Origin: Verrucomicrobiia bacterium
GTDB taxonomy: Bacteria > Verrucomicrobiota > Verrucomicrobiia > Chthoniobacterales > UBA6821
DNA: 64,000 nucleotides
Direction of reading: 5' to 3'
Assembly (NCBI GenBank): GCA_040380225.1
Contig: JBEIJN010000005.1
Span: 4,563-68,562 of the forward strand
Shown here: positions 10,213 through 64,000 of the stretch, piece by piece
How the letters are laid out: every line of letters starts with the position of its first letter
Numbering within the stretch: the stretch's first letter is position 1
Made by a program: the position numbers and the translations under genes
Notes under the pieces: generated by a model
Seen by the model: the letters and a program-made list of their open reading frames with translations, nothing else
Database searches by the model: none
What the model was told of the DNA's origin: nothing

Positions 10213-10401
10213 TGCTCTCCATCCAATCTCTCTGCGCCTAAAGCCTAGCAAAATTTAAACCCGAACTCTGAAGATTAGAGAGATGCGTTGGTGTTAAGAT
10301 GGTGGTCGATAAGAGTTGCGGAGATCCGTTCTAACTTCAGTTTTTTCTGCCCCCCCCCAACGGGCTCGTTCCGTTGGAGCGCGATTTCATTGGTGCGCTA
10401 G

Positions 10402-11635
10402 GGAAACGCTGATTTAATCGGGAAGCGTTTCAATGCGATGCTATGCAGGATACTTGTTTAGGGTTAGACTGGTTGGCATGAACAAGCAGCTGAGTTTTTC
10501 TGCGAGCGAGTATGCTGGGAAGAAGAAGGCGACCAGAAGGGAGCGCTTCCTTGGGGAGATGGAGAAGGTGGTGCCTTGGGGGAAGCTTATCGCCCTGATT
10601 GAGCCATGTTATCCCAAGGGTGAGCGAGGGAGGCCTCCGGTGGGGATTGAGAGGATGCTGAGGATCTACTTCCTATCGCAGTGGTACGGGTTGGCAGACG
10701 AAGCCCTTGAGGATGCCATCTACGACAGTCAGGCGATGAGGAACTTTATCGGTGTGGATCTGGGAGGGGAAAGCGTGCCTGATGCGACGACATTGCTGAA
10801 GTTCCGACATCTCTTGGAAGAGAATGAGCTGACGCGGGCGATCTTTGAGGAGATCGGGAGGCATCTCAAGGCCAAGCAACTGATGATGAAGGAGGGAACC
10901 ATCGTGGATGCGACCATCATCAGCGCCCCCTCCTCAACCAAGAACGCGGAGGGCAGGAGGGATCCTCAGATGCATCAGACCCGCAAAGGCAACCAGTCGT
11001 ACTTCGGGATGAAGGCCCAAATTGGAGCGGATGCGAATTCGGGGTTGGTTCACAGTCTTGAGGGCACCCCCGCCAATGTGAGTGACGTCAGCCAGACCAA
11101 GCATCTGCTGCATGGAGAGGAGAAGAGTGTTCACGCCGATGCGGGATACACCGGGGTTGAAAAGAGGGAGGAATTTGAGGGCAGCAAGATCGAGTGGATG
11201 GTGCCTCAGAAGAAAGGACGTCTCAAAGCAATGGCCGATGGGTTGAAGAAGGATCTCTTACGGGAATGGGAGCGTCGGAAGGCGCAGGTGCGAGCCCGGG
11301 TGGAGCATCCCTTCCACATCGTCAAAAACCTCTTCGGCTACCGGAAAGTCCGATACCGGGGACTGAGGAAAAATCTCGCCCAACTTCACAGCCTCTTCGC
11401 CCTGGCCAATCTGGTCATTGCCGGACGCATGCTCCGCAGGGCCCAGATGGCATGAAATCACCAGAAACACCCTCCTTCGCAGCCAATGGATCACTTCATC
11501 GGCACCCTGCCACCGCTAAAAAATGCCCCTCCCGGAGCCACACGCGTTGCCAGATGATCAAATTTATCTCTCCAATCCCTTCCTCCACTCCAAAATCAGC
11601 CAAACTTTGAAAAAGGCGATTTAATCAGCGCTTCC
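10402..11635 (+). mobile_element. IS5-family (IS5 group) insertion sequence, complete, 1234 bp
   Basis: Imperfect terminal IRs: ggaaacgctgatttaatcg on the left, cgatttaatcagcgcttcc on the right. Flanked by a 4-bp direct repeat CTAG (10398-10401 and 11636-11639). Single DDE transposase gene. Confidence 0.85.
10478..11455 (+). CDS. IS5-family DDE transposase
   Basis: MNKQLSFSASEYAGKKKATRRERFL..., VDATIISAPSS, HADAGYTG and VEHPFHIVKNLFGYRKVRYRGLRKN are typical of IS5 transposases. Confidence 0.9.
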   Translation: MNKQLSFSASEYAGKKKATRRERFLGEMEKVVPWGKLIALIEPCYPKGERGRPPVGIERMLRIYFLSQWYGLADEALEDAIYDSQAMRNFIGVDLGGESVPDATTLLKFRHLLEENELTRAIFEEIGRHLKAKQLMMKEGTIVDATIISAPSSTKNAEGRRDPQMHQTRKGNQSYFGMKAQIGADANSGLVHSLEGTPANVSDVSQTKHLLHGEEKSVHADAGYTGVEKREEFEGSKIEWMVPQKKGRLKAMADGLKKDLLREWERRKAQVRARVEHPFHIVKNLFGYRKVRYRGLRKNLAQLHSLFALANLVIAGRMLRRAQMA

Positions 11636-11730
11636 CTAGAGGTGGCAATCGGATTCTCACCGATTCGGGAGCTTTCACTCCCGACCCAATTGGATGCCAC
11701 CCCGCAGCCGCCCACCATCAGGCGGGAGGA

Positions 11731-14960: not shown

Positions 14961-15013
14961 AACGGAAAAGATGAGGGATGAAGGATGAAAGCTGAAACCG
15001 GGAGGACAGAGAG

Positions 15014-15167
15014 TAATCAGGAAATCAGGAAATCAGGAAGACGTGATGGGAGGGAAATCTGCCCTCCAATGGTGAAAAGGCTTGGCAGGGAAGCGGCAAT
15101 TACTCTCCACCGATCCCAAATGACCCATGGCTCCTCCGCCTTTTCCTGATTTCCTGATTTCCTGATA
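15014..15167. repeat. foldback element with stuttered arms (word AATCAGGA)
   Basis: A 24-bp perfect inverted repeat: (atcaggaa)x3 at 15016-15039 pairs with (ttcctgat)x3 at 15143-15166. The spacer is 103 nt. Confidence 0.8.
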
Positions 15168-16678: not shown

Positions 16679-16709
<31 letters not shown>

Positions 16710-16792
16710 ATGCAGGCATCGTTCGTTGCAGCACTCCCCTGATCCTTCCTTCTTTTGGATTTTTGTGCCGACCCTGTCCCTATAGACTCAGA

Positions 16793-16826
16793 CCTAATAG
16801 TCTAACAGACTACAGCCTAATAGCCT
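16793..16826. repeat. family-T array of YCTAAYAG-type 8-mers
   Basis: cctaatagtctaacagactacagcctaatagcct matches the reverse complement of 62620..62653 at 32 of 34 positions (hand count). It abuts the stop codon of the exonuclease gene. Confidence 0.75.
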
Positions 16827-20061: not shown

Positions 20062-20186
20062 GAGCGTGGTGGTGTCTAATGGTTACCAGGCGGTTGAATA
20101 GCTGTGTTTTTCTTTGGGTTCATGGGGGGGCTTTACTGTCTTTTTGGATGGTCGATAGTTTCTTCAGCTAATACAAAGCGGTTGCG

Positions 20187-20230
20187 CCCCTAACAGCCTA
20201 ACAGCCTAACAGCCTTCAGCCTAAACCCCT
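20187..20230. repeat. family-T array: cccc-(taacagcc)x3-ttcagcctaaacccct
   Basis: Read directly. The same element with a single unit occurs at 63903..63930. Confidence 0.8.
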
Positions 20231-23287: not shown

Positions 23288-23291
23288 GCCA

Positions 23292-23389
23292 CGTCGAGAG
23301 TCGACAGACGAGCGTCGAGAGCTTTTTGTGAGTATAGGCCTCGGGCTTTTGCCTTTTCTGAAGCCCTCGACCCTCGTCTCTCGACTCGG
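23292..23389. repeat. foldback element with stuttered arms (word GTCGAGAG/CTCGAC)
   Basis: cgtcgagagtcgacagacgagcgtcgagagc pairs with gccctcgaccctcgtctctcgactcgg, forming a ~26-bp imperfect stem. It sits between convergent genes. Confidence 0.7.
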
Positions 23390-23393
23390 GCCT

Positions 23394-31598: not shown

Positions 31599-31623
31599 GG
31601 AAGCGCTGATAATCAGTGCTTCC
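31599..31623. mobile_element. 25-bp IR-IR mini-element derived from the IS5-family ends
   Basis: ggaagcgctgat-a-atcagtgcttcc is the left and right IS termini joined head to head. It is flanked by a CTAA direct repeat (31595-98 and 31624-27). Confidence 0.55.
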
Positions 31624-31701
31624 CTAAACTCCCGCCGCGTGAGCGACGCCCGTCTCATTTTCGCGGATGGACGGGTTCTGATCGTGAGGTAGCATCCGCT
31701 C

Positions 31702-32556
31702 ATGGATTCCCTCCTCACCCTCCCCATCGGCGACTTCCGCGCCGTCGAGTTGACCCTTCGGCTGACCGTGGCGCTGGTGGCCATGACGGCTCTCCTTCTC
31801 CTCTTCTCCATCAGCTGCACGGCGGGCCGCCTCCGTCTGCCGCTCATCCTCGCCTCGGTCGCCCTCCTCGGAGCGGCCTGGTTTGAATCGGGCGTCTGGC
31901 TCGGCTGGAAGCAGGGTTTCGAGTTGGCCGGCACCTCCTACTGCGTCACCGGTCAGCTCCTCTCCGGCGAGGACCGCATCCTGGCCTGGTCCCTCGGGGT
32001 CCCCGCGATTCTCTTCTGCTTCGGACTGCTTCAGTTCCCCCGGGGAGAGGGGCATCGCTCTGCATGGACGCGGTTCTGCGCGGCGATCCTGCTTCTCGCA
32101 CTCCTCGCGCCGTTCTCGAGCCTGCTGGCGCTGGCATTGCTGGGCTGGGTGCTCTGGTTCCTCTGCATCAAGGCTCCTTCCGTCGCCAAGCGTTCCTCCG
32201 TTTCCCTGCGGCGGGAATGCCTGATCGCATCGGGTAGCATCGCGCTCCCGTTCCTTATCACCCTACTGGGCGGCTGGCATCTGCTGCCGCTGGGAAAGTC
32301 TGCCGAGGGGATTCTTGTCCGCGGTGAAATCATCCGCTCCCTTTGCGACATCCTCTCCTTAGTCGTGCCCGCCGTGATCCTGCTGACGGCAGTTCTCAGG
32401 CTGGCTGCGGATGTTTCGGAAAAATCCCCCGAACGCTCATCTGCACCCCCAACCGCATCCCACATCACGCCCCCAATCCCACAAATCAAGGAAAAGAAAT
32501 CCAAGCCACGCGATCCCGCATCGTCGGATCTCCAATCCGGCCTGTTCGGAAGCTAG
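31702..32556 (+). CDS. hypothetical polytopic membrane protein (6-7 TM helices)
   Basis: 284 aa with multiple hydrophobic helices and a Pro/Ser-rich tail. The stop TAG lies inside the left CTAG target duplicate of the MITE. Confidence 0.5.
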   Translation: MDSLLTLPIGDFRAVELTLRLTVALVAMTALLLLFSISCTAGRLRLPLILASVALLGAAWFESGVWLGWKQGFELAGTSYCVTGQLLSGEDRILAWSLGVPAILFCFGLLQFPRGEGHRSAWTRFCAAILLLALLAPFSSLLALALLGWVLWFLCIKAPSVAKRSSVSLRRECLIASGSIALPFLITLLGGWHLLPLGKSAEGILVRGEIIRSLCDILSLVVPAVILLTAVLRLAADVSEKSPERSSAPPTASHITPPIPQIKEKKSKPRDPASSDLQSGLFGS

Positions 32557-32863
32557 GGAACCGCTGATTAAATCGCATAGAGGCCGTTGCGGAAAGAATG
32601 GGCCGCGGGCAAGGCGGCTTCGCGGGCGCATCCCCGCAGTGGGCTGCCGTAACGGATGCGAAGCAACGGCCGGGCAAGCAAACCGCGAAGCCAACACAGC
32701 CCCCGGCCTGTTATCTCCGCAACCCGGAGGGCTGAAGCCATTTGTCGATTTTTGCAGCGTTGCTCGCTCGGGCGAGACCGCTGCGGGTATCGCCCAGCAC
32801 TCACGCCTTCAAAAATCAGCAACTGCCCTTCAGCGGCCATCATGGGATTTAATCAGCGGTTCC
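32557..32863. mobile_element. 307-bp MITE, a non-autonomous derivative of the IS5-family element
   Basis: Termini ggaaccgctgattaaatcg and gatttaatcagcggttcc match the IS IRs at 10402 and 11635. CTAG target duplication at 32553-56 and 32864-67. No transposase ORF. Confidence 0.75.
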
Positions 32864-33946
32864 CTAGAGCGTCGGGTAATCCGTATATCCCTTCTCTCCG
32901 GGTGAATAGAAGGTCGATTCGTCCGCTGCATTGAGGGGTGACTTCTGCCTGAAGCGCTGGGGCAGATCGGGATTCGCGATGAAAGGCACGCCGAATGCAA
33001 TCGCATCGGCCCACCCCTCTGCGAGGGCGGCATTGCCCGACTCGAGGGTGAATCCCCCGGCAGAGACAATCTTCCCGTTCCAAGCAGAGCGGAGCTCCTT
33101 CGGGCCGATTCCCTCCGCAGCTCCATGGGCTATGTCCTGGGCGGTCACCTGCGTGATGTGGGCATAGGCGAGATCGAAGCGGTTGAGCTCGCGGAGCACG
33201 TGGCCGAAGGTCTCGAAAGGATTGTCGTCCCGCATGTCATTGAAGATACCGGCGGGGGAGAAACGGATCCCTACCCGGTCAGCACCCCAGACTCCGACCA
33301 CGGCCTCGGTGACCTCGATGGTCAGGCGCGACCGGTTGGCGACCGATCCACCGTATTGGTCGGAGCGCTTGTTTGTCCCAGTGCGCAGGAACTGATCGAG
33401 CAAATACCCGTTGGCATTGTGGATCTCCACACCGTCGAATCCGGCCTCCTTGGCGAGCTTCGCGACGTGGACATACTCGGCGATGATGCCAGGAATCTCG
33501 GCGGTCTCGAGGGCGCGGGGAGTTACATATTCCTCCATCGCTGTCCCAGTGAAGACCTGCCCCTTGGGCTTGATGGCCGAGGGAGCGACGGGGAGTGCAC
33601 CTTCCTTCTGATAAGAGGGATGAGAGATGCGGCCGACATGCCAGAGTTGCAGGTAGATGTGCCCACCCTTGGCATGGACGGCCTCCGTGACTTTCTTCCA
33701 ACCCGCGACCTGTGCCTCAGTGTGAATGCCGGGCGTGCTGGGATATCCGTAACCGGAGGGAGAAACGGAGGTCGCCTCCGAAATGATCAGTCCTGCCGAG
33801 GCCCGCTGGGCGTAATATTCCGAGTTCAGCTCATTCGGCACATGACCCTCGGAAGCCCGGCAACGCGTGAGCGGCGCCATGAAGATCCGGTTTGGCAAGG
33901 CCAGCGGTCCGAGCTGGAGGGGAGTGAAGAGGTCGGAGCGGGACAT
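32864..33946 (-). CDS. NADH:flavin oxidoreductase, Old Yellow Enzyme family (NemA-like)
   Basis: 360 aa. LFTPLQLG, NRIFMAPLTR, QLWHVGR and GFDGVEIHNANGYL motifs. Confidence 0.9.
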   Translation of the reverse strand: MSRSDLFTPLQLGPLALPNRIFMAPLTRCRASEGHVPNELNSEYYAQRASAGLIISEATSVSPSGYGYPSTPGIHTEAQVAGWKKVTEAVHAKGGHIYLQLWHVGRISHPSYQKEGALPVAPSAIKPKGQVFTGTAMEEYVTPRALETAEIPGIIAEYVHVAKLAKEAGFDGVEIHNANGYLLDQFLRTGTNKRSDQYGGSVANRSRLTIEVTEAVVGVWGADRVGIRFSPAGIFNDMRDDNPFETFGHVLRELNRFDLAYAHITQVTAQDIAHGAAEGIGPKELRSAWNGKIVSAGGFTLESGNAALAEGWADAIAFGVPFIANPDLPQRFRQKSPLNAADESTFYSPGEKGYTDYPTL

Positions 33947-34142
33947 GGGAAGGGGTTATGGTTAAAGGCTGTTGGACTATTGGGCTGTTAGGAAAAAGCA
34001 GGGGGAAATGTGGTGCTCTGGCGTGCCTCACCTAAAAACGCGAAGATCGTGTGGAAGAATCCGTATCTTCTCCGCTTCTTTCTGACTTCCTGAGTTCCAG
34101 ATTAAAATCTCTCCGCGCCTCTGCGGCTCCGCGGGGAAATCC

Positions 34143-34506: not shown

Positions 34507-36399
34507 TCAGGCTTTCTGCGGGGGATCAATCAGGATCTCGGCTTTGAAAATCTCGAGGGCCTTTCGGATGAGCGGATCGCTTTTGAACTCCTCCAGCTCT
34601 GCGGCGCTGATCGCGGGCGTTGCTGGTTCCGGGGCCGTCTGCTTGGGGGCAGCTTCGGTGGGTTTGCCCGCCGTGCGGTTTGTTTGCGACACCTCCTTGG
34701 TGGATGGAGCGGGAGCGGCGACCGGTTCCGGTTCCGGAGGAGCGGGCGGCTCCTCTCCGGTGAAGCGGTATTCGAAGGTGATCTTCACGCCGAGTGCCGC
34801 CGTGAGCTGCTCCTCGATTTTTTTCACCGCCTGCGGCCAGAAAAGCGTCTGCGTCTGCTGCTCCAGCGACGGAGGGAACTCCACCAGGATGGCATTGCCG
34901 ATCCGCTCGATGAAGCGCCCATCCTCAACCCATCCGAATTTCAGCGGCGAGTCGGCAGCCAGTTTCATCGCCACGTCCTGCCAGGGGTCGGAGGAACTGG
35001 GAGTTGGGGGCTGGGAACCAAGGCTCTGGGAAGAGCCGCGGACGACTGACGTAGTCAGCTCCGCAGGGGCTGCACCGCTTCCCGGGAGGGAAGTGCCGTC
35101 ATCTGGGGATTCAACCGGTGTGGGTTTCGATTCAGCCTTGGGCGGTTCGATCCGGATGGGATCAACGGGAAGAGGGGCGGCTTTGGGAACTGGCGCTGGT
35201 GAGGGAGCCGGTGCGGCGACCGGTGCCGTGGGACGGGTAGCCGGTGGGCGCGCCACAGGACGATCCGGGAGGGGTGCGCCGCCGCGAAGCGCGGTGAGCG
35301 TGTCGAGCACGTCGCTGAGGCTTGCCTCCTCGAGGAGATGCACTCCCTTGATGAGGGCGACATCGAGCTGGAGCTTCTTGTCGGTGGCCCAGCGGAGGCG
35401 GCCTTCCGCCTCGCCGAAGTGATCCAGCAGGACCAGGAGCTTCTCCTGGGAGATCGCCTCCCCGAGCCTCGCTTCCTCGGTCGCTTCCGCAGACGGGTGG
35501 ACCTTGCCGATCAGGATATCGCGGAGCAATCCAACGAGATCGCCAAGCAGTCGAGCCAGATCCTTGCCGGCCTCGGCCTGACTCTTCACGACGGCCAGTG
35601 TGGCGGGCGTGTCGCGGGCGACGAGGGCTCCTGCAAGCTCCAGGACGGTCTCGCGCGGCGTGAATCCGAAGACGTTGTGGACATCGGCGGCGCCGATCGT
35701 CGTGCCGCAGAAGGCGACGACCTGATCGAGCATCGACTCGGCGTCACGCATCGCCCCGTCAGCCCCGCGCGCGATCGTGGCGGCGGCAGCGGGATCTAGT
35801 GCGATCTTCTCGTTCTTGGCGATGTGCAGCAGATGGTCGGCGATGAGTTCCGGCGTCAGTCGCCTCAGGTCGAAGCGCTGGCATCGGCTGAGGATGGTGG
35901 CCGGCACCTTCTGCGCCTCGGTCGTGGCGAAGAGGAACTTCACGTGCTCCGGCGGCTCTTCCAGCGTCTTGAGCAACGCGTTGAAGGCCGCGGTCGAGAG
36001 CATGTGCACCTCGTCGATGAGGTAGACCTTGTAGGGTCCGCGGGCCGGGGCGTAGGCGGCGTTCTCTCGAAGCGTGCGGATGCTATCGACGCTGTTGTTG
36101 CTCGCCCCGTCGATCTCCATCACGTCGAGGCTGCGTCCCTCGGCGATCTCGACGCAGGCATCGCAGGTGCCGCAGGGATTGTCGGTCGGCTCGCCCTTGT
36201 TGGAGAGACAGTTGAGGGCCTTGGCCAGGATGCGGGCCGAGGAGGTCTTCCCCACGCCGCGGGGACCGACGAAGAGGTAGGCCTGCGCGAGCCGCTTGCC
36301 GGTGATCGCGTTCTGGAGCGTCCGGGTGATGTGTTCCTGGCCCACGACCTCCTCGAAGCGTTGGGGACGGTATTTGCGGGCGAAGACTCGGTAGCTCAC
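34507..36399 (-). CDS. dnaX: DNA polymerase III subunit tau (gamma/tau)
   Basis: 630 aa. FVGPRGVGKTS Walker A, zinc module CGTCDAC, IDEVHMLS, then a Pro/Ala-rich linker and a tau C-terminal region. Confidence 0.9.
   Translation of the reverse strand: MSYRVFARKYRPQRFEEVVGQEHITRTLQNAITGKRLAQAYLFVGPRGVGKTSSARILAKALNCLSNKGEPTDNPCGTCDACVEIAEGRSLDVMEIDGASNNSVDSIRTLRENAAYAPARGPYKVYLIDEVHMLSTAAFNALLKTLEEPPEHVKFLFATTEAQKVPATILSRCQRFDLRRLTPELIADHLLHIAKNEKIALDPAAAATIARGADGAMRDAESMLDQVVAFCGTTIGAADVHNVFGFTPRETVLELAGALVARDTPATLAVVKSQAEAGKDLARLLGDLVGLLRDILIGKVHPSAEATEEARLGEAISQEKLLVLLDHFGEAEGRLRWATDKKLQLDVALIKGVHLLEEASLSDVLDTLTALRGGAPLPDRPVARPPATRPTAPVAAPAPSPAPVPKAAPLPVDPIRIEPPKAESKPTPVESPDDGTSLPGSGAAPAELTTSVVRGSSQSLGSQPPTPSSSDPWQDVAMKLAADSPLKFGWVEDGRFIERIGNAILVEFPPSLEQQTQTLFWPQAVKKIEEQLTAALGVKITFEYRFTGEEPPAPPEPEPVAAPAPSTKEVSQTNRTAGKPTEAAPKQTAPEPATPAISAAELEEFKSDPLIRKALEIFKAEILIDPPQKA
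35016..35112. repeat. family-L multi-hairpin repeat copy embedded in-frame in dnaX (codons ~430-462)
   Basis: 35016-35040 is identical over 25 nt to 59156-59180. The next ~70 nt align with the family-L core, and all four hairpins are retained. Confidence 0.65.
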
Positions 36400-38952: not shown

Positions 38953-38975
38953 AATGCGAAGCCGAAGAATATTTT

Positions 38976-39065
38976 CCGCAGAGGCGCAGAGGCGCGGAGT
39001 TTTTAGACAAAACAACTGCAGGATTTCTTTTTCTTCATCTCTGGGACTCTGCGACTCTGCGCGAG
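38976..39065. repeat. foldback element with stuttered arms (word CGCAGAGG)
   Basis: ccgcagaggcgcagaggcgcggag pairs with ctctgggactctgcgactctgcgcgag. It sits in the thyA-folA spacer. Confidence 0.65.
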
Positions 39066-39090
39066 AATCTGCAGTTTTCCTTTTTTTCAG

Positions 39091-40636: not shown

Positions 40637-40819
40637 CAGGGGAAAGGATGAATTATGAATGTTGAATTATGAAAGAACGGAATACATGGGTTCACTCGTT
40701 CCCAACGGATACGAAGCAATGGCTGGACCTCCAAATGATGAGACGCGGTGTGGGTCTGGTGCCGTCTCGGTTTTTCCCTCTCTGCGCCTCTGCGTCTCTG
40801 CGCGATATTTTTCCCATCG

Positions 40820-42818: not shown

Positions 42819-43574
42819 CTAGAGGTGATCGAAGGGGATGCCGCCGCCGCAGGCCACGCAGGAGTATTTGTCGGGAACGGAATCATGCGGCCTGAGGTCG
42901 ACCTTTCCCCCGGCCAGTTCGACCATGAGCATTCCGGCGGCGATGTCCCAGAGACTGATCTGGCTCTCGATGTAGGCGTCGAGCCGGCCGCTTGCGACAT
43001 AAGCGATGTCGAGCGCCGCACTCCCCATCATCCGGGTCTTGCGGGCGGAGCGCATCATCTTCCCGAGGATGGGGAGCCCCTTATCGATCGAGGCCTCGGT
43101 CTTGGAGACGCCGACGGCGACGATCGCATCGGCAAGCTTGGTGCGGCTGCTGACGCGGATGGCCCTGCCATTAAGCGTGACGCTCCCGGTCGCGCGCGAG
43201 GCCACCCAGAGTTCGTCGGTCATCGGCTGATAGATGACGCCCGCCGTGATGACCCCGTTGCGGCGGTGTGCAATGGAGACGGCGAAGTGGGGGATGCCGT
43301 AGAAGAAGTTCACCGTGCCGTCGATCGGGTCGATGATCCACTGATCCGCGGCGTTCTGGTCTCCACGGATCCCCTCCTCCCCGTAGATGGCATGGTCGGG
43401 GAAGACGCCGAGGATGAGCGACTCGATCAGCGCCTGGGAGCGTCGGTCGAGTTCCAGCTTGATGTCGTGCGCCTCGGCTGAGTCGACGTGGAGTTCGCGC
43501 TCGAAGTGGCCGCGGATCATGCCCCCGGCGGCCAGTGCCGCGTCACGCGCGGTCGTGAGAATCAGTTCGTCCAT
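42819..43574 (-). CDS. inositol monophosphatase family protein
   Basis: Start at MDELILTTARDAA. WIIDPIDGT and WDIAAG motifs. Confidence 0.85.
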   Translation of the reverse strand: MDELILTTARDAALAAGGMIRGHFERELHVDSAEAHDIKLELDRRSQALIESLILGVFPDHAIYGEEGIRGDQNAADQWIIDPIDGTVNFFYGIPHFAVSIAHRRNGVITAGVIYQPMTDELWVASRATGSVTLNGRAIRVSSRTKLADAIVAVGVSKTEASIDKGLPILGKMMRSARKTRMMGSAALDIAYVASGRLDAYIESQISLWDIAAGMLMVELAGGKVDLRPHDSVPDKYSCVACGGGIPFDHL

Positions 43575-43699
43575 CTGTGATTCAGTAGCGGAGTAAGCGG
43601 AGGGATGAAACCTGAAACTTGAAACCTGAAGAAACAATGCCTTTGTGAGGACAGCTAATCGCCTCTTCTGTTCCTGGTTTTAACTCCTGTGGACTTGCG

Positions 43700-43780: not shown

Positions 43781-43972
43781 TTACTTCTTCTTGGCGACGG
43801 CCTTCTTGACGGCTTTCTTTGCAGGAGCCTTCTTGACAGCCTTCTTCACGGTCTTCTTGACGGCCTTCTTAACAGCCTTCTTGACGACCTTCTTCACGGC
43901 CTTCTTGGCCGGAGCCTTCTTGACGGCTTTCTTTGCAGGAGCCTTCTTTGCAGCTTTTTTCTTAACGGGCAT
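43781..43972 (-). CDS. histone H1-like Lys/Ala-rich nucleoid protein
   Basis: 63 aa made of KKA(V/P)KKA repeats: MPVKKKAAKKAPAKKAVKKAPAKKAVKK... Confidence 0.7.
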   Translation of the reverse strand: MPVKKKAAKKAPAKKAVKKAPAKKAVKKVVKKAVKKAVKKTVKKAVKKAPAKKAVKKAVAKKK

Positions 43973-44131: not shown

Positions 44132-44695
44132 TCAGTGCGCCGCGAGGATTTTTTCCGCATGCGCGACGATCTCGTCGATCTCCGCGAGCCGTCCCGTTCC
44201 CTCGTAACCGCACGCAAGCATCCCCTCCGCAGGCCCCACGAATGAGGATCCGCGGTTCTTCAGTGTCTCCGCGTTCGCGCGCGTGGCGGCATGCTCCCAC
44301 ATCTTTCCGTTCATGGCCGGTGCGATGAGCAGCGGTGCACGCGTCGCCAGCGCAACGGCTCCGAGCGCATCGTCGGCGAACCCGTGCGCGAGCTTCGCGA
44401 TGGCGTCGGCGCTCGCGGGCGCGACGAGCAGAAGGTCGGCGCGGTCGGCAAGTTCGATGTGTCCCGGCTTCCATCCACCCTCCTGCTCCTCCGAGAGATC
44501 GAGGAGAACGGGATTGCGTGAGAGCGTCGCGAGCGTGAGCGGCGTGATGAACCCCGCGGCGGCGCGCGTCATGACGACGAAGACTTCATGCCCATTCCTG
44601 CGGAGCTGGCCGGCCAACTCTGCCGCCTTGTAGGCGGCGATCGATCCGGTCACCCCGAGGATGACGGTGCGTCCGGAGGAGGAACGGTCGCTCAC
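44132..44695 (-). CDS. coaC: phosphopantothenoylcysteine decarboxylase flavoprotein (CoaC domain only)
   Basis: ILGVTGSIAAYKA and PAMNGKMW motifs, 187 aa, with no CoaB domain attached. Confidence 0.8.
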   Translation of the reverse strand: MSDRSSSGRTVILGVTGSIAAYKAAELAGQLRRNGHEVFVVMTRAAAGFITPLTLATLSRNPVLLDLSEEQEGGWKPGHIELADRADLLLVAPASADAIAKLAHGFADDALGAVALATRAPLLIAPAMNGKMWEHAATRANAETLKNRGSSFVGPAEGMLACGYEGTGRLAEIDEIVAHAEKILAAH

Positions 44696-49775: not shown

Positions 49776-49818
49776 CAAAAAGATACAGGCCGCCGCACCA
49801 GATGGTACGACGGCCTGT
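49776..49818 (-). terminator. Rho-independent terminator (minus strand)
   Basis: Minus strand: acaggccg...cggcctgt extended hairpin followed by atcttttt. It lies between family-L copy 1 and the TamB-like gene start. Confidence 0.55.
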
Positions 49819-50016: not shown

Positions 50017-50350
50017 GTTATAAAGTTAGAACGTTGAAGCGTTGCAACCAAGGCGCTGAAACGAGCCCATGGGGTGGTCGAGTTGTATAGTCTCCGAAGG
50101 TGGACCCAAAGGGTGCGCCTTGCGGGAGTAAGCGATTACAAAAGAGCTGCGTAAGACTACGACGAAGTCGTTGCCCAAAGGGCGCCACCGCTTGCCGGGC
50201 GCAAGTGACGTCAAAGTGGATCACTACAGCCCTGATCTGAATATCGAGAAGGCGAATCAGAGAATTCGTCGCAACTGCACGGGCCGAAGAGACGAATCAA
50301 GGTTTCCACTTCAGTCCCTTGTAACCCTTTTAACGCTGTAACATTTTAAC
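50017..50350. repeat. family-L multi-hairpin repeat, copy 1 (candidate structured RNA or MITE)
   Basis: Shares caaccaaggc-ctg...gagc and gcgtaagactacgacgaagtcgt-gcccaaagggcgccaccgcttgccgg...gcaagtg-cgtcaa..tggatc and acttcag-cccttgtaac with 59135..59382. Its ends are inverted arrays of GTTNNAAN 8-mers. Confidence 0.6.
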
Positions 50351-56694: not shown

Positions 56695-57155
56695 GGAGAC
56701 GCGCCGGTACGATAAGGGAGCTTTCCCTGAACGGAAAGATTTCTTCCCTTCGCCTGGCGTGCTATTGTTTCTTTTCGCTGGAAAGCGAGATATCGAGCCT
56801 CGGGATTCGCGATCTGTTCACACCGTGGATGGATGAATCTTTTTCGAGGGCAGGTTCTTCTTCTTCTTAATTGTGTGAACACCATGTGTCTTTCTCTTGA
56901 ATCCCCAGTATCCTTCGGGTTCTCCGAGGCATTTGTTTCTGTGAATGGACCCCTCGCGGATGTTTGCCACCAAGGGAGAGAATGTTCCGTGAAACATCTT
57001 TTCCCATTCCAGCCCCATTCGTTGCCAAGCCATTCACATTCTTTTCCCCAAGCGATGCCCTCGAAGCCGAGGAGCTGAGAAAAAGACGAAACCAAAAGAG
57101 AAATAAGCAAAAAAACCGTAAGTAATTAAAAGAAAAATACTTATAGAAATGTTCC

Positions 57156-59066
57156 ATGTGGAACACAGCCATGTTCACCTACCCAACTCATTTTGATGTC
57201 CTTGTGATCGGCGCCGGGCACGCCGGGATCGAAGCTGCTCATGCGGCGGCAACGATGGGGGCGCAGACTCTCCTGCTCACCCAGAATGCCGACACGATCG
57301 GCCAGATGTCATGTAACCCCGCCATCGGGGGCCTGGCCAAGGGACACATGGTTCGCGAGATCGACGCGCTCGGGGGTCTCATGGGTCTCAATACCGATGC
57401 CACCGGCATCCAGTTCCGGATGCTCAATGCTTCCAAGGGACCCAGCGTCCGTGCACCCAGAGCTCAATGTGATAAGAAAGCCTATCAATTTCGGGTTAAG
57501 GCGATCCTCGAGAATCTTCCCAATCTCAGCCTCAAGCAGGCCAATATCACCTCGCTCGTCGTCGAAGGAGACCGGGTGGTAGGTGCAGAGACGAACATTG
57601 GCCTTCGTTTTCTGGCAAGGAGTGTGATCATCACCACAGGGACATTCATGAGGGGGCTCCTCCATGTCGGCCTGAATAATCAACCCGGAGGACGCATGGG
57701 TGATGCCCTATCCACCCTGAGTGACAACCTCAAGCACCTTGGATTTGAAGTAGGGAGATTCAAGACCGGCACACCTTGCCGCCTTCTTGCCAAGTCGATC
57801 GACTTTGCCCGTTGCGAACGACAGGAAGGAGACACCCCCATCCCCCTCTTCTCGCACATACCGGAGAGCATTGAGTGGCGGAAGGATGATCTCCATACGT
57901 TGAATCATCATGATCCTGAGAAGGGAATGTTCCATGTGGAACAAATTCCCTGCTGGATCACCTACACCAACGAGGAGACCCATGAGATCATCCGTTCGAA
58001 CCTCCACCAATCTCCTCTCTACGCTGGAGTGATCGATGGGGTGGGACCGCGATACTGCCCCTCCATCGAGGATAAGGTGGTTAAGTTTGCAGAGAAGCCG
58101 CGCCATCAGATTTTCTTGGAACCGGAAGGGAGGCATACGGGAGAGATCTACGTGAACGGCGTCTCCACAAGCCTTCCTTATGAAGTGCAGTATGCCTTCA
58201 TCCGCTCCATCCCGGCACTTGAGAATGCCGAGATTCTGCGACCCGGCTATGCGGTCGAGTATGATTACTGCCCCCCTCACCAGCTCCATGCCACGCTCGA
58301 GACCAAGCGGATCGAGGGCCTCTACTTCGCGGGCCAGATCAACGGCACCTCGGGATACGAAGAGGCGGCGGCCCAGGGTCTCATGGCCGGAATCAACGCC
58401 GCCCTCAAGGTTCAGTCGAAGCCCCCTTTCCAACTGGGCCGGGAGGAGGCCTACATCGGGGTCATGATCGATGATCTCGTTACGAGGGGGACACCCGAGC
58501 CCTATCGGATGTTCACCAGCCGCGCGGAATACAGACTGCGACTGCGTCAGGATAATTGTGATATCAGATTGACGGACAAGGCTTTAGATCTAGGAACAGC
58601 TTGTGAATACCGCTCTCGCGTTTACCGAGCCAAGCGCGAAGCCCTCCAGTCCCTTTCAAAGGAAGTCCTTCATATTCAACATGATGGACTACAATTAGCC
58701 CAGTGGCTCAAGCGTACCGGGAACGAACCAAACAAGCTTCCCGCCGATATCTATGGCCGATACAGCCCGGAGATTTGGGGGCTGGTCGAGACAGACCTCA
58801 AGTATGAGGGATATCTACGCCGGGAGCAGGATCAGATAGAGCGCCAGCGCGGACAAGAGGCGCAGACGATCCCCAGTGGGATCGACTACGATGCCATTCC
58901 GAGCATGCGCCTTGAGGCGAGGCAGAAACTCCACTCCTACGCTCCCGAGACATTGGGTCAGGCTTCACGCATCAGCGGGATCACCCCTGCCGACATTTCC
59001 GTCCTGGCAGTCTGGATCAGGAAACTCGCAGCTGGGCAGGATTCCGGGAGAGGGGAAAGGGATTAA
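57156..59066 (+). CDS. mnmG: tRNA uridine-5-carboxymethylaminomethyl(34) synthesis enzyme
   Basis: [16 protein letters not shown], full-length GidA pattern, about 630 aa. An alternative start lies at 57171. Confidence 0.95.
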
Positions 59067-59134
59067 GAGTTAGGAAGTTGAACCCGGAATTTGCATAGGA
59101 AATTTCTGAGAACATAGGAGGCCGTGTGAAAAGA

Positions 59135-59382
59135 GTTAAAAAGGTGAAATGCTACAACCAAGGCTCTGGGAAGAGCCGCGTAAGACTACGACGAAGTCGT
59201 AGCCCAAAGGGCGCCACCGCTTGCCGGCAGGCAAGTGGCGTCAACATGGATCCGGGAGAGCCCTGACTCGGGATTCGGGAGGGGGAGGTAAGGGAAAGTG
59301 CCGTCAAAAGATGCCTTCATGAGTTCTATTCAGCCTCTGACTTCAGCCCCTTGTAACTTTTTAACATTGTAACGCTTTTAAC
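59135..59382. repeat. family-L multi-hairpin repeat, copy 2 (candidate structured RNA or MITE)
   Basis: Four consecutive hairpins: ggctct-GGGA-agagcc; ctacgac-GAA-gtcgtag; gccc-AAA-gggc; cgcca/cttgcc-GGCA-ggcaag/tggcg. It sits in the convergent mnmG/STAS spacer. Confidence 0.6.
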
Positions 59383-59489
59383 CATTTCGGGACCCACCTT
59401 CCGGGTGAAACAACCAGACCTGTCGCCGCTACCCAATCCCCCATCCCCAAGTACCTATTCCCAATCCCCAACCCCCTACTTACCCGCAG

Positions 59490-59834
59490 TCAGCCTGCCC
59501 GCAGCAGCCTACCCGCAGCAGCCTCGGGCGTCTCCTCGATGATGAAGAGATCCTCGAGCCCTGCCAGGTGGAAAAGTTCCCGCACGGGCTGCCCGAGCGA
59601 GGCAAAAGCCAACCCACCGCCAGCAGCCGACAGATGCCGCTGGCACATGAGAAAGACCCGGAGGCCCGCGCTGCTCACGTAGGTGAGAGAGGAACACTCC
59701 ATGATGAGCTTGGCACCCGCCGCCTCATACAACGGCGTGAGCCGCTCCTCCAGAACGGGGCTGGTCGCCACATCCAAGCGTCCGGCAAGCGCAAAGACGG
59801 GAATGCCATCGGCAAGTGAAAGGGTGATCTCCAT
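59490..59834 (-). CDS. STAS-domain anti-sigma-factor antagonist
   Basis: Start at MEITLSLADGIPVFALAGRLD. YVSSAGLRV motif with the phosphorylatable Ser context. Confidence 0.8.
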   Translation of the reverse strand: MEITLSLADGIPVFALAGRLDVATSPVLEERLTPLYEAAGAKLIMECSSLTYVSSAGLRVFLMCQRHLSAAGGGLAFASLGQPVRELFHLAGLEDLFIIEETPEAAAGRLLRAG

Positions 59835-62029: not shown

Positions 62030-62542
62030 ATGAGCATCTATCTCAACGAACCGCCGGACGAGGATCCGATCATCGATCTTACCAGCGATGCCTATTTCAT
62101 GGGTCAAGCGATGCGTCAGGCCCTGAAGGCCTACGAGGCCGAGGAGGTACCGATCGGAGCCGTCGTCGTGCGCGAGGGGAAGATCATCGCCCGTGCCGCG
62201 AACCAGGTCGAGACGCTCAAGGATGCGACCGCCCACGCCGAGATGCTCGCCATCACCCAGGCCGAGAACGCGCTGGGAGACTGGCGCCTGAACGACTGTG
62301 ATCTCTATGTGACCAAGGAGCCGTGCCCGATGTGTGCCGGCGCGCTCGTCCATGCACGGCTTCGCCGCGTCATCTTCGGATGCCACGACTCAAGGGGAGG
62401 TGCGGCTGGCGGCCTCATCAACATCCTCCAGATGCCCGAGCTCAACCACCGCTGCGAGATCAGCGGCGGCATCCTCGGAAACGAATCGGCACAACTGCTG
62501 AAAGCCTTTTTCTCCGAGCGAAGGGGAAACACCGGAAGCTGA
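62030..62542 (+). CDS. tadA: tRNA adenosine(34) deaminase
   Basis: HAEM and PCPMCAGA zinc-binding motifs, 170 aa. Confidence 0.9.
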   Translation: MSIYLNEPPDEDPIIDLTSDAYFMGQAMRQALKAYEAEEVPIGAVVVREGKIIARAANQVETLKDATAHAEMLAITQAENALGDWRLNDCDLYVTKEPCPMCAGALVHARLRRVIFGCHDSRGGAAGGLINILQMPELNHRCEISGGILGNESAQLLKAFFSERRGNTGS

Positions 62543-62619
62543 AGGCTATAATTAGGAACCCTGGAAAAGTCAGCGATAGAGGGGTGGCATAACTTCTCGG
62601 GAGATAAGTGCCACTAAGT

Positions 62620-62653
62620 AGGCTGTTAGGCTGTAGACTGTTAGACTATTAGG
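62620..62653. repeat. family-T array of YCTAAYAG-type 8-mers (inverted copy of 16793..16826)
   Basis: aggctgttaggctgtagactgttagactattagg. Further related words extend to about 62695. Confidence 0.75.
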
Positions 62654-62823
62654 GGGAAGGAATCCAAGCAGCCTGTTAGACTCTAGCTTATTAAAGGGTG
62701 GGCGATTAACGGTGTTTTGGAATCCACGGTTTGGATGCCTTCCGCAAAATTTTGTTGAGCTAGGGGCTGAAGTATCGGCTTCCTGATCGACTCGGTATGG
62801 TGTTTGGATCACCATCATCCCGC

Positions 62824-63216
62824 ATGAACCGCTTTTTTCCCCTAGTTGCCCTCCTGCTCCTCACGCTGGTTCTTCCGGCCTGTGTCACCCACCTTCAGAA
62901 GAAGGAGAACTATCTCAAGGAAGCCGGCTTCCGCACCGTGAAGCCGACGACGCCCGAGCAGATCGCCCACTTCCAATCACTCCGCAAGAACCACATCACC
63001 CACGAGACCCGCAACGGCAACACCCTCTTCATGCTCGCCGACGAGAACAAGAATGTCCTCCTCGTCGGTGGCGAATCCGAATTCCAGCGCTATCAGGAAA
63101 TCCTCTATTCCCGCGAAGTGGAACCGGGCAAGAAGAGCGCCAAGTTCACCAAGGGAATCGAAAACGTCTGGAATCAGGGCTGGGGGTCGGTGCTGGGTTC
63201 GATGATTCCGCAGTAA
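62824..63216 (+). CDS. hypothetical lipoprotein
   Basis: Start at MNRFFPLVALLLLTLVLPAC, a lipobox. No family recognised. Confidence 0.5.
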   Translation: MNRFFPLVALLLLTLVLPACVTHLQKKENYLKEAGFRTVKPTTPEQIAHFQSLRKNHITHETRNGNTLFMLADENKNVLLVGGESEFQRYQEILYSREVEPGKKSAKFTKGIENVWNQGWGSVLGSMIPQ

Positions 63217-63441
63217 GCGATCCGTCTGCAGATGACGGATCAGGGGTTTAGGCTCTAGCGGTTTAGGTTGCTAGAGGGAAGACGACCGAAGATTTTTAAT
63301 CAGGAAATCAGGAAGGCAAGAACGATTAGGTTTGTAGGCTCTTGCAATTTAGTCTTTTAGGGCCGGTGTGAAGGGTGCTGTGTTGTGTGGTATCCACTGC
63401 TTTGTTGATTTCGCTGACCTCCGGCCCTAGTTATCGCTCCC

Positions 63442-63684
63442 ATGACGCTTGCCGAGATTTTGAACGAGTTGCCGAATCTCACTTTCATGGAACGGCAGGA
63501 ACTGATGGCGGCATTGATCCATCTTGATCCGCCCCCCGTCTCTGAGGATGAGAGGGTAATTCTTGAGGCAAGGCTGAAGTATGCCGAGGAGAATCCGGGG
63601 CGCGAGATCCCTTTTGAAGAGCTTGAGGCCAGACTCGTGGAGCGATATCGCCGGCGATCAGACGCTGACATGGAACCCCGCTAA
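63442..63684 (+). CDS. putative addiction-module antitoxin component (TIGR02574-like)
   Basis: MTLAEILNELPNLTFMERQELMAALIHLD...EARLKYAEENPGREIPFEELEARL resembles the short helical antitoxin family. No intact toxin gene follows. Confidence 0.45.
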   Translation: MTLAEILNELPNLTFMERQELMAALIHLDPPPVSEDERVILEARLKYAEENPGREIPFEELEARLVERYRRRSDADMEPR

Positions 63685-63902
63685 CGATTTCATCGGCGGA
63701 AAGCGCATTAAGTTTTCCCCTGCCACAGGATCGCCAAAATAGCCGGGCTAGCCAAGGGGATAAAAGGGATGTTCACCAGCGAGCCATTGTTCCCAAGGAC
63801 GAGCCGAGGCTGAGTTCAGGTAGTCTGGTGCGGCCGGCAGGAGCTCTGGGGGCATCTCTGCAAGCTCACTTGCAAAGGTGCGACCTCCGCCCACTGCCTT
63901 TT

Positions 63903-63930
63903 CCCCTAACAGTCTTCAGCCTAAACCCCT
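63903..63930. repeat. family-T element, single-unit version of 20187..20230
   Basis: cccctaacagtcttcagcctaaacccct. Confidence 0.7.
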
Positions 63931-64000
63931 TTTTTGGGGCCTAGGACGCTCTACGTCCTAGTTGCTGTGGGATGATGGGTGCCTATGAAAACGCATCTAC

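Follow-up and report, generated by a model that had tools for sequence, protein, structure and literature searches.

In a 64,000-nucleotide stretch of contig JBEIJN010000005.1 from a Verrucomicrobiia bacterium (hereafter the window), a 248-bp string of hairpins (positions 59135-59382) lies in the spacer between the convergent genes mnmG and STAS, and it had been proposed as a candidate non-coding RNA (ncRNA). This raises the question of whether the spacer holds an RNA gene of its own or a member of a repeat family. We found that the flagged 248 bp are the inner part of a layered mosaic repeat and not a locus-specific ncRNA gene. With a probability of about one half, we propose that it belongs to a lineage-restricted family of modular, non-coding, highly structured repeats of the same broad kind as ERIC, BOX, Correia and Rickettsia palindromic elements (RPE), because it is layered, separable, variably present, nested and occasionally intragenic. 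Its period-8 array arms, the absence of a definable target-site duplication and its RNA-type covarying multi-hairpin core match no described member of that kind. The original prediction survives in that the element is non-coding, highly structured and without an Rfam match, with a core that covaries in the manner of an RNA, has GNRA loops and tolerates G·U on the plus strand. It is not supported for a gene belonging to this spacer, as the element is absent from the relatives' spacer, is a separable mosaic, yielded no promoter-like (sigma-70-type) or terminator-like signals and has antisense copies in the FtsX 3′ untranslated region (UTR) and in dnaX.

Layered build and turnover of the repeat

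All four consecutive hairpins described within the 248 bp are present in the sequence, and the minimum-energy fold recovers three of them. In this fold the flanking arrays pair and close the element, as had been suggested for its ends. These inverted arrays also proved real, with units of 8-9 nt of the GTTNNAAN type. The GTT starts have offsets of 6/15/23 in the left arm and of 4/13/21/29 in the reverse complement of the right arm, and of 2/10/18/26 and 6/14/22/31 in a second copy (copy 1, below), indicating an array period of 8-9 nt. The neighbours mnmG and STAS were confirmed by Pfam and no plausible open reading frame (ORF) was found in the spacer (44-51 aa only), which measures 423 bp rather than 424. 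The full extent of the flagged copy (copy 2) is ~59081-59436 and comprises the following features:

59081-59128, plus strand: outer 5′ shell, type A, with AACCCGGAATTTGCAT (left arm of the outer inverted repeat) and the conserved stretch AGGAAATTTCTGAGAACATAGGAGGCCGTGTG
59129-59161, plus strand: left array, three 8-9-nt GTTNNAAN-type units (GAGTTAAAAAG / GTGAAATG / CTACAACC) with GTT/GTG/CTA starts and period 8-9, the 5′ arm of the long closing stem
59153-59248, plus strand: four-hairpin unit (conserved core, ~95 nt), best match of covariance model R1 (114 bits, E = 1e-30)
59156-59163, plus strand: AACCAAGG of the unit
59162-59177, plus strand: hairpin P0, GGCTCT-GGGA-AGAGCC, with a GGGA loop
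59178-59185, plus strand: junction GCGTAAGA
59186-59202, plus strand: hairpin P1, CTACGAC-GAA-GTCGTAG
59203-59211, plus strand: hairpin P1b, CCC-AAA-GGG
59212-59240, plus strand: hairpin P2, CGCCA(CCG)CTTGCC-GGCA-GGCAAG-TGGCG, a bulged 11-bp stem with a 3-nt bulge and a GGCA loop
to 59249, plus strand: GTCAACATGG of the unit
59249-59345, plus strand: 3′ module type A, with hairpins GGATCCGGGAGAGCC, CCCTGAC...GTAAGGG and others
59346-59384, plus strand: right array, four NTTNNAAC units (CCCCTTGTAAC / TTTTTAAC / ATTGTAAC / GCTTTTAAC), the 3′ arm of the closing stem
59385-59436, plus strand: outer 3′ shell, ATTTCGGGACCCACCTTCCGGGTGAAACAACCAGACCTGTCGCCGCT
57156-59066, plus strand: mnmG (Pfam)
stop at 59490, minus strand: STAS gene (Pfam)

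The original prediction also held that the core recurs elsewhere at about 90% identity. After correction of a 4-nt register offset in its coordinates, the two cores agree at 67 of 75 positions (89%), including 57 nt at 96% identity (50142-50198 vs 59171-59227). One 23-mer from the core is present at exactly two places in the window and in none of 100 shuffles. With model R1, the window yielded three solid units, a degenerate one and no others, a result that stood when the filters were turned off. Besides copy 2, the elements and one neighbouring signal are:

50017-50350, plus strand: copy 1, with a type-B 3′ module; R1 match at 50137-50218 (64 bits)
50017-50053 and 50316-50350: left and right arrays of copy 1
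50052-50057 and 50143-50148: P0 strands of copy 1, enclosing a nested degenerate unit of ~85 nt (50058-50142)
50149-50210: junction, P1, P1b and P2 of copy 1
50220-50310: module B of copy 1
35013-35106, plus strand: stand-alone unit in dnaX; R1 match of 81.5 bits
62524-62621, plus strand: degenerate unit with the P1b/P2-like hairpin GGTGGCATAACTTCTCGGGAGATAAGTGCCAC; R1 18.8 bits, E = 0.001-0.006
49785-49818, minus strand: intrinsic-terminator-like hairpin of the FtsX/MacB transcript, conserved in L012, L015 and L020

The degenerate unit at 62524 lies downstream of a cytidine deaminase gene and has an orthologous copy in L023 and a weak nhmmer match in L013. Labels of the type L001-L030 denote the loci and contigs that we collected from relatives. 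Genomes and metagenomes were each covered by a single exact-pattern scan, and the copy number and taxonomic range given here are lower bounds. A structure-tolerant pattern matched 8 loci in species-representative genomes, all of them metagenome-assembled genomes (MAGs) of Chthoniobacterales/Verrucomicrobiota, and with the strict pattern at least five of these loci fell in one MAG, JBAPTI01. The tolerant pattern had no match in viral contigs. A metagenome scan with a 22-mer gave one true locus (L010). The exact 22-mer CCCAAAGGGCGCCACCGCTTGC of the unit was also seen in two metagenome contigs (L009:589-610 and L011:2226-2247) within an unrelated repeat whose flanks are lower in GC by eye; a rough estimate gives ~0.2 expected chance matches, and both contigs were set aside.

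When the copies were placed side by side, arrays and core were common to them while whole modules differed. P1 is replaced wholesale between copies (CTACGAC/GTCGTAG vs TCCCGC/GCGGGA), at least three kinds of 3′ module occur (A, B and C), and units exist with and without shells, as do shells with and without a unit. An insert of ~85 nt occupies the P0 loop of copy 1, L002 and L003, a structured insert of ~200 nt the P2 loop of L003 and L004, and a small hairpin the left array of L006 and L007. Type-A copies have an extra outer shell with its own inverted repeat: the 5′ shell, a single exact match in the window, is kept upstream of the left array in L001, L003, L008 and L015, the 3′ shell is kept after the right array in L001, L006, L007, L008 and L015, and the partner of the outer repeat (ATGCAnAATCyGGGTT), present in L001, L008 and L007, is missing from copy 2. 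Module A is common to L001, L003, L008 and L015:11995-12125 with 87% mean column identity and shows compensatory changes by eye, such as CCCTGAC/GTCAGGG vs ACCTGAC/GTCAGGT. These comparisons show that the modules are separable and that the build is layered, each layer sitting at the apex of the hairpin of the next-outer layer: from the outside in, the outer shell, the GTTNNAAN array stem, the ~95-nt unit with its 3′ hairpin module and, in some copies, nested units within the GNRA loops of P0 or P2.

Where the breakpoints of module gain and loss could be read, they fall in recurrent GGGA-loop hairpins, in GGGA(A)G(A/T)GCC or in CAAGG repeats. Since these short repeats derive from the element's own hairpins, slippage or recombination between modules appears to be one source of the mosaic; internal module indels flanked by CAAGG or GGGAAGNGCC repeats likewise resemble slippage or deletion points. 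A second MITE-like family (MITE, miniature inverted-repeat transposable element), with the terminal inverted repeat CTAGGGAACCGCTGATTAAATCGC of 24-37 nt, was seen at 32553-32867 of the window and at L004:4027-4131, with solo ends at 11616-11641, 31606-31629 and about 10400-10432. The P2 of the L004 unit is replaced by one end of this family, indicating that repeat families insert into each other.

Presence or absence of the element varies among relatives at every locus examined. We fetched the orthologous mnmG-STAS spacers through MnmG homologues (91-97% identical in the relatives) and compared them, together with the FtsX-TamB spacer of copy 1:

mnmG-STAS, window: shell A plus unit
mnmG-STAS, L015-L018: shell A without unit, a 441-aa ORF, then a unit-bearing divergent shell C (seen in L015-L017; contig ends cut L017 and L018)
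mnmG-STAS, L027 and L029: shell C without unit, the left array joined directly to TGGATCC
mnmG-STAS, L012 and L030: no element; 107 and 151 bp, with a different array type
mnmG-STAS, L020: 11 bp
FtsX-TamB, L010, L015 and L030: copy 1 without the nested insert
FtsX-TamB, L012: two arrays only, fused at a CAAGG repeat
FtsX-TamB, L020 and L027: no element

The four-fold sites of these relatives are 72-79% identical to the window, so the relatives are not extremely close and the turnover of the spacers is steady rather than explosive. The 441-aa ORF (L015:11912-13985, also in L016-L018; L015 MnmG 94% identical) has a signal-peptide-like N-terminus and no Pfam domain and, in L015, is bracketed by two different elements of the family in the same orientation. 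Downstream of the cytidine deaminase gene, L013:6700-12288 is a variable island with an Xre/RES toxin-antitoxin pair, a DNA methylase with an NgoMIV-type restriction enzyme and DUF2283/DUF4258, with two units where it begins and a third close to where it ends; in the window, other small ORFs occupy this position (62543-64000).

Covariation and conservation of the 95-nucleotide unit

The unit reads AACCAAGG, P0 (6 bp, GNRA loop), GCGKAAGA, P1 (5-8 bp, free sequence), P1b (CCC-nnn-GGG), P2 (5 bp, 3-nt bulge, 6 bp, GNRA loop) and (R)UCAA. It is found within array shells, as a stand-alone unit, as an insert in its own P0 or P2 loops and, antisense and in-frame, within dnaX. Units without arrays were found with blastn and nhmmer at window 35013-35106, L013:6770-6866, L013:6912-7008 and L003:5013-5106, and nested in the P2-loop insert of L003 and L004. 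Altogether, R1 identified ~20 distinct units in roughly 0.4 Mb of collected sequence.

In the alignment fitted by the model, 92.5% of the cells are standard pairs vs 38-57% when the partners are slid by 1-3 columns, both partners have changed in 21 of the 27 pairs, and the covariation score of 0.413 (vs 0.04-0.09) is reached by none of 500 shuffles. Such an alignment leans toward the model, and a structure-blind MAFFT alignment therefore served as control; it gave 90.8% paired cells, 14 of the 27 pairs and a score of 0.357. Several units are orthologous, so that these cell counts overstate the number of independent events. GU/UG pairs outnumber AC/CA pairs on the plus strand (26 vs 9), and loop variation is confined to GNRA (GGGA, GGAA, GUGA, written GTGA in the DNA, and GCGA). 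The unpaired junctions GCGKAAGA, CCC/GGG, GCUU...AAG and UCAA are conserved while the stems vary, P1 for instance being CTACGAC/GTCGTAG, TCCCGC, CTGCC or CTGAC, which is not how a young repeat decays under neutrality.

For copy 2, folding energy by itself does not exceed chance (plus strand z = -1.33, with 17 of 200 shuffles as stable; minus strand z = -1.12); copy 1 gave z = -2.86 on the plus and z = -1.68 on the minus strand. We therefore take the hairpins as real because of the covariation across copies and not because of thermodynamics. Both copies fold more stably as the plus than as the minus strand, and this, together with the covariation, the G·U tolerance and the GNRA loops, suggests that selection acts on the single-stranded form of the plus strand, for which RNA is the simplest candidate.

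One copy of the unit lies inside dnaX. dnaX is encoded on the minus strand (ORF 34507-36399, Pfam clamp-loader domains), and the unit lies antisense and in-frame within it, translated as amino acids 431-462 at the end of the Pro-rich domain-III linker. The peptide TSLPGSGAAPxxLTTSVVRG was found in 4 of 120 DnaX homologues, and another 18 of the 120 have only the remnant VDG(T/S)SQSLGS, a solo P0-like hairpin; the difference from the relatives is a 60-nt indel between the 10-nt repeats GGGAAG(A/T)GCC. Between the window and L022, the unit is 94% identical and has a private P1 variant in common, while the flanking linker is unalignable; 22 of 23 four-fold sites are identical within the unit vs 53.6% of 302 across dnaX. 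The private variant argues against gene conversion, and three readings are left: strong nucleotide-level constraint in place, entry of the same variant into the same hairpin twice, or recent exchange. The unit lies roughly in what we take to be the tau/gamma boundary region, where E. coli makes gamma by frameshifting; no slippery heptamer was seen upstream of it in the mRNA on reading the sequence. A protein-level survey of translated units with a duplicated 58-aa query gave no match at E<=1.

These results raise the possibility of a new family of functional, perhaps trans-acting structured RNAs, encoded by several paralogous, modular genes per genome, in which the unit would be a protein- or ligand-binding scaffold, the arrays a closing or processing stem, and the extra domains expansion segments at hairpin tips. 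Several features are consistent with it: all long helices covary by compensatory changes, unpaired junctions are conserved between varying stems, GNRA loops go with the one-strand G·U bias, and module A covaries too (by eye). Moreover, insertions occur at hairpin apices only, the island of conservation in dnaX spans exactly the unit (94% vs 54%), and the absence of an Rfam match would make the family new. However, a scan for sigma-70-type sites found no promoter-like signals and terminator-like signals were not found either, antisense copies sit within an essential ORF and within a 3′ UTR, presence varies at every locus examined, the unit in dnaX has lost 60 nt throughout a sub-clade (remnant in 18 of 120 homologues), and the folding energy is unexceptional. 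We consider such an RNA family somewhat unlikely, and it keeps substantial weight because the dnaX conservation is the strongest argument for the unit being more than junk. It is also conceivable, though we hold it unlikely, that the ~95-nt unit (AACCAAGG-P0-GCGKAAGA-P1-P1b-P2-GUCAA) is a new functional structured RNA class that propagates itself, inserting at hairpin apices including its own GNRA loops and then being kept by strong purifying selection, even antisense in dnaX. If true, this would imply a trans-acting RNA or ribonucleoprotein function or RNA-templated mobility, undescribed in bacteria.

Structure kept over sequence with strand asymmetry would also be expected of hairpins that a dedicated recombinase or transposase recognises in the form of folded single-stranded DNA, as in REP/RAYT, IS200/IS605 ends and attC, the latter two of which show structure conservation with strand asymmetry. 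The unit and/or the arrays would then be recombination substrates and could also mobilise adjacent genes. Of nine independent units in the syntenic region around mnmG and dnaX, eight share one strand, with host genes on both (window 35013, 50137, 59153 and 62524; L013 6770, 6912 and 11742; L015 13672; L027 20398). In agreement with recombination substrates, two elements bracket the 441-aa ORF in the L015-L018 spacer where the window has one element, units flank the toxin-antitoxin/restriction-modification island of L013, and the array units GTTRRRR/YYYYAAC resemble the integron core sites GTTRRRY/RYYYAAC. Among the loci with Pfam gene lists, however, we noticed no gene for an integrase or for an HUH or Y1 transposase, and the arm order GTT...AAC is the reverse of that of attC. 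PMC3733652 gives REPs as 20-40 nt with a GTAG/CGTC head, whereas GTAG occurs here in one P1 variant only. Loop variation restricted to GNRA is moreover an RNA signature, and unit orientations are mixed elsewhere, with opposite orientations on one contig (L001/L005) and within L004; GC skew was too noisy to give a replication direction. On balance, recognition as folded DNA seems to us quite unlikely.

Transcription, spread and the weight of the evidence

Convergent mnmG and STAS could also be served by an orientation-independent transcription terminator or insulator, the repeat families being this clade's way of ending genes. Array-flanked elements favour convergent spacers and were seen in no divergent one (4 convergent, 2 '++', 2 '--' and 0 divergent contexts among 8 independent copies), the long array stem can form on either strand, and nearly all spacers of the clade carry G-rich and then C-rich end arrays. 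However, no U-run follows the stems: one weak minus-strand site was found vs 1.3 expected by chance, with no T-run after the array stem, and the sole convincing terminator around both copies is that of the FtsX transcript, a canonical one beyond copy 1. A unit in dnaX would, furthermore, terminate an essential gene, and relatives manage without the element at the same spacer. A terminator role is thus highly improbable.

The end arrays are a feature of spacers at large. Almost every intergenic spacer starts, on the plus strand, with a G-rich/C-poor pseudo-periodic array of ~8 nt and ends with a C-rich/G-poor one (for example 14975-15166, 16690-16826, 20181-20230, 23288-23393, 33947-34142, 38968-39090, 40637-40819, 62620-62653 and 63242-63322; also in L013, L015, L020, L021 and L022). 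Many unrelated sequence families contribute (ATCAGGAA, CCTAACAG, GGTTTAGG, GCAGAGGC, GTCGAGAG and GATGAAKG). Over 55 spacers, the mean GC skew is +0.22 in the first 40 nt (42 of 55 positive) and -0.20 in the last 40 nt (41 of 55 negative), a pattern that holds in all four gene-orientation contexts. Two further spacers were recorded. The divergent spacer of 461 bp upstream of mnmG (56695-57155) is AT-rich, its local GC falling to 0.56, and could be a replication-origin region. A 12-nt-periodic, CTTCTTGACGGC-like repeat with six copies of a 61-nt register lies at 43787-43961, between the called genes 42819-43637 and 44132-44695.

If the element is a modular structured repeat, as we propose, read-through transcription from neighbouring genes would supply plus-strand RNA whose several hairpins would form a compact folded domain, with the array stem closing it. 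By analogy with ERIC, Correia and REP, this domain may act in cis at mRNA 3′ ends, on stability, on processing or as a termination barrier. The family itself would spread and reshuffle as DNA, presumably through a trans-acting activity and/or through slippage and recombination between repeated hairpins. Terminal inverted repeats are present (the arrays pair in the folds of both copies, and some copies have the outer repeat AACCCGGAATTTGCAT), and the elements are small, non-coding and multi-copy (250-530 bp, ORFs of 44-51 aa, two array-flanked copies in 64 kb), as in MITEs. Dozens of copies with target-site duplications, which would have made it a plain MITE and overturned the ncRNA proposal, were not what we found: there are 3-4 copies per 64 kb and at least 5 in one MAG, and no duplication was found. 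An autonomous insertion sequence with the same ends was not noticed in the loci with called genes, no search having been aimed at it.

Several results weigh against a repeat of this kind. A target-site duplication could not be defined at any boundary: no common direct repeat was seen outside the arrays in 10 copies, and a whole-element empty site was not alignable. Beside the units we noticed no gene for a transposase, a recombinase or a reverse transcriptase, few of the flanking genes being annotated and L001-L011 being unannotated. The copy number is modest, with three solid units and one degenerate unit in 64 kb. At three loci (copy 1, L008 and dnaX), host transcription runs opposite to the favoured strand. 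Copy 1 is placed after the FtsX stop codon and before the canonical terminator at 49785-49818, hence in the FtsX 3′ UTR; it is therefore transcribed, but antisense to the favoured strand. Read-through RNA thus cannot be the selected molecule everywhere. Conservation of unit and arrays at the copy-1 locus (0.86-0.90) is somewhat higher than at four-fold sites (0.74-0.79), and a selfish insert in decay should be far less conserved than the copy in dnaX is.

The family acts like selfish mosaic DNA, yet its core bears the full signature of a selected RNA fold, and one copy, in dnaX, is frozen at 94% across genomes with saturated silent sites. Bacterial RNA screens routinely drop repetitive-looking motifs, and this family shows that the boundary is blurred. 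A functional core would be an unreported RNA class in Verrucomicrobia, in which, to our knowledge, few RNA families have been characterised. A purely selfish family would be a clean example of repeat propagation depending on structure, and also a new marker of rapid spacer turnover in Chthoniobacterales.

Comparison with known systems

The claim that the element is no known RNA held up: a cmscan of the whole window matched no Rfam 15 family at the gathering threshold. Permissive scans of 58950-59550, L003:950-1650 and L013:6650-7100 returned only chance matches at E>0.7, to eukaryotic long non-coding RNA, small nucleolar RNA and microRNA models. Hammerhead, twister and K-turn were rejected, as the core nucleotides do not fit by eye and Rfam gave no match. 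The many GGA motifs raised the possibility of a CsrA sponge. An intrinsic (Rho-independent) terminator was set aside because the hairpin lacks its U-run. An independent small RNA gene, which should have its own promoter and terminator and a fixed position, was likewise set aside: no sigma-70-type promoter was found beside either copy in a scan limited to such sites, and the orthologous spacer differs in L012, L020, L027, L029 and L030. Searches of the literature turned up no repeat or RNA motif of this kind in Verrucomicrobia.

Multi-copy structured RNAs linked to mobile elements in Rfam, such as HEARO (the omega RNA of IscB), are similarly covarying structured RNAs with several copies per genome and a patchy distribution. 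HEARO/omega-type RNAs adjoin and work with an element-encoded protein, whereas no conserved ORF adjoins the elements here and cmscan found no Rfam family. The integron attC site is a single imperfect hairpin, 5′-RYYYAAC ... GTTRRRY-3′, at cassette ends in arrays; the present element has GTT first and AAC last, three to four repeats per arm and housekeeping neighbours, and was not assigned to that class.

REP/BIME sequences with RAYT resemble the element in being extragenic palindromes in mosaic clusters with a bias to gene 3′ ends and structure-based recognition (in part PMC3733652). That paper defines a REP as a 20-40-nt palindrome with GTAG or CGTC at one end, thus a single hairpin, whereas the unit here has ~95 nt, four helices and conserved junctions, with GTAG only in the CTACGAC/GTCGTAG variant of P1; it was not counted as a RAYT-associated REP. 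No RAYT gene was seen in the annotated loci.

BOX of Streptococcus pneumoniae consists of boxA, a variable number of boxB, and boxC. Like it, the present family is a hairpin-rich modular mosaic with varying module combinations, although its modules are nested in hairpin loops and not in tandem, and sequence and host are unrelated; BOX elements are also mentioned in PMC10969869. RPE are palindromic or hairpin-forming repeats of ~100-150 bp that lie in-frame in protein-coding genes, housekeeping ones included, and are tolerated in permissive protein regions (PMC10969869), comparable to the dnaX copy. Only one intragenic copy was seen here, most being intergenic, and the sequence is presumably unrelated. 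In its Chthoniobacterales host, the family is best regarded as an analogue of RPE and not a member despite the in-frame copy. We know of no description of strong nucleotide-level conservation of an intragenic copy as a property of RPE.

ERIC/IRU and Correia elements are bacterial intergenic repeats of the MITE type. They differ in that no sequence similarity exists, the family here belongs to Verrucomicrobia and not to Proteobacteria, its arms consist of 8-9-nt repeats in arrays instead of one unique inverted repeat, neither a TA nor any other target-site duplication was found, and a covarying multi-hairpin interior with GNRA loops has not been reported for those families. ERIC size variants arise by insertion at fixed internal sites, and the size variants here likewise come from insertions at fixed internal sites. 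Moreover, ERIC/IRU and Correia are also non-coding repeats of 100-400 bp with terminal inverted repeats and a long stem, lie mostly 3′ of genes and are co-transcribed with them, and have occasional intragenic copies and a lineage-specific copy number (PMC10969869). The features described for MITEs, ERIC, Correia and RPE include in-frame copies within genes and the insertion of one element into another (PMC10969869).

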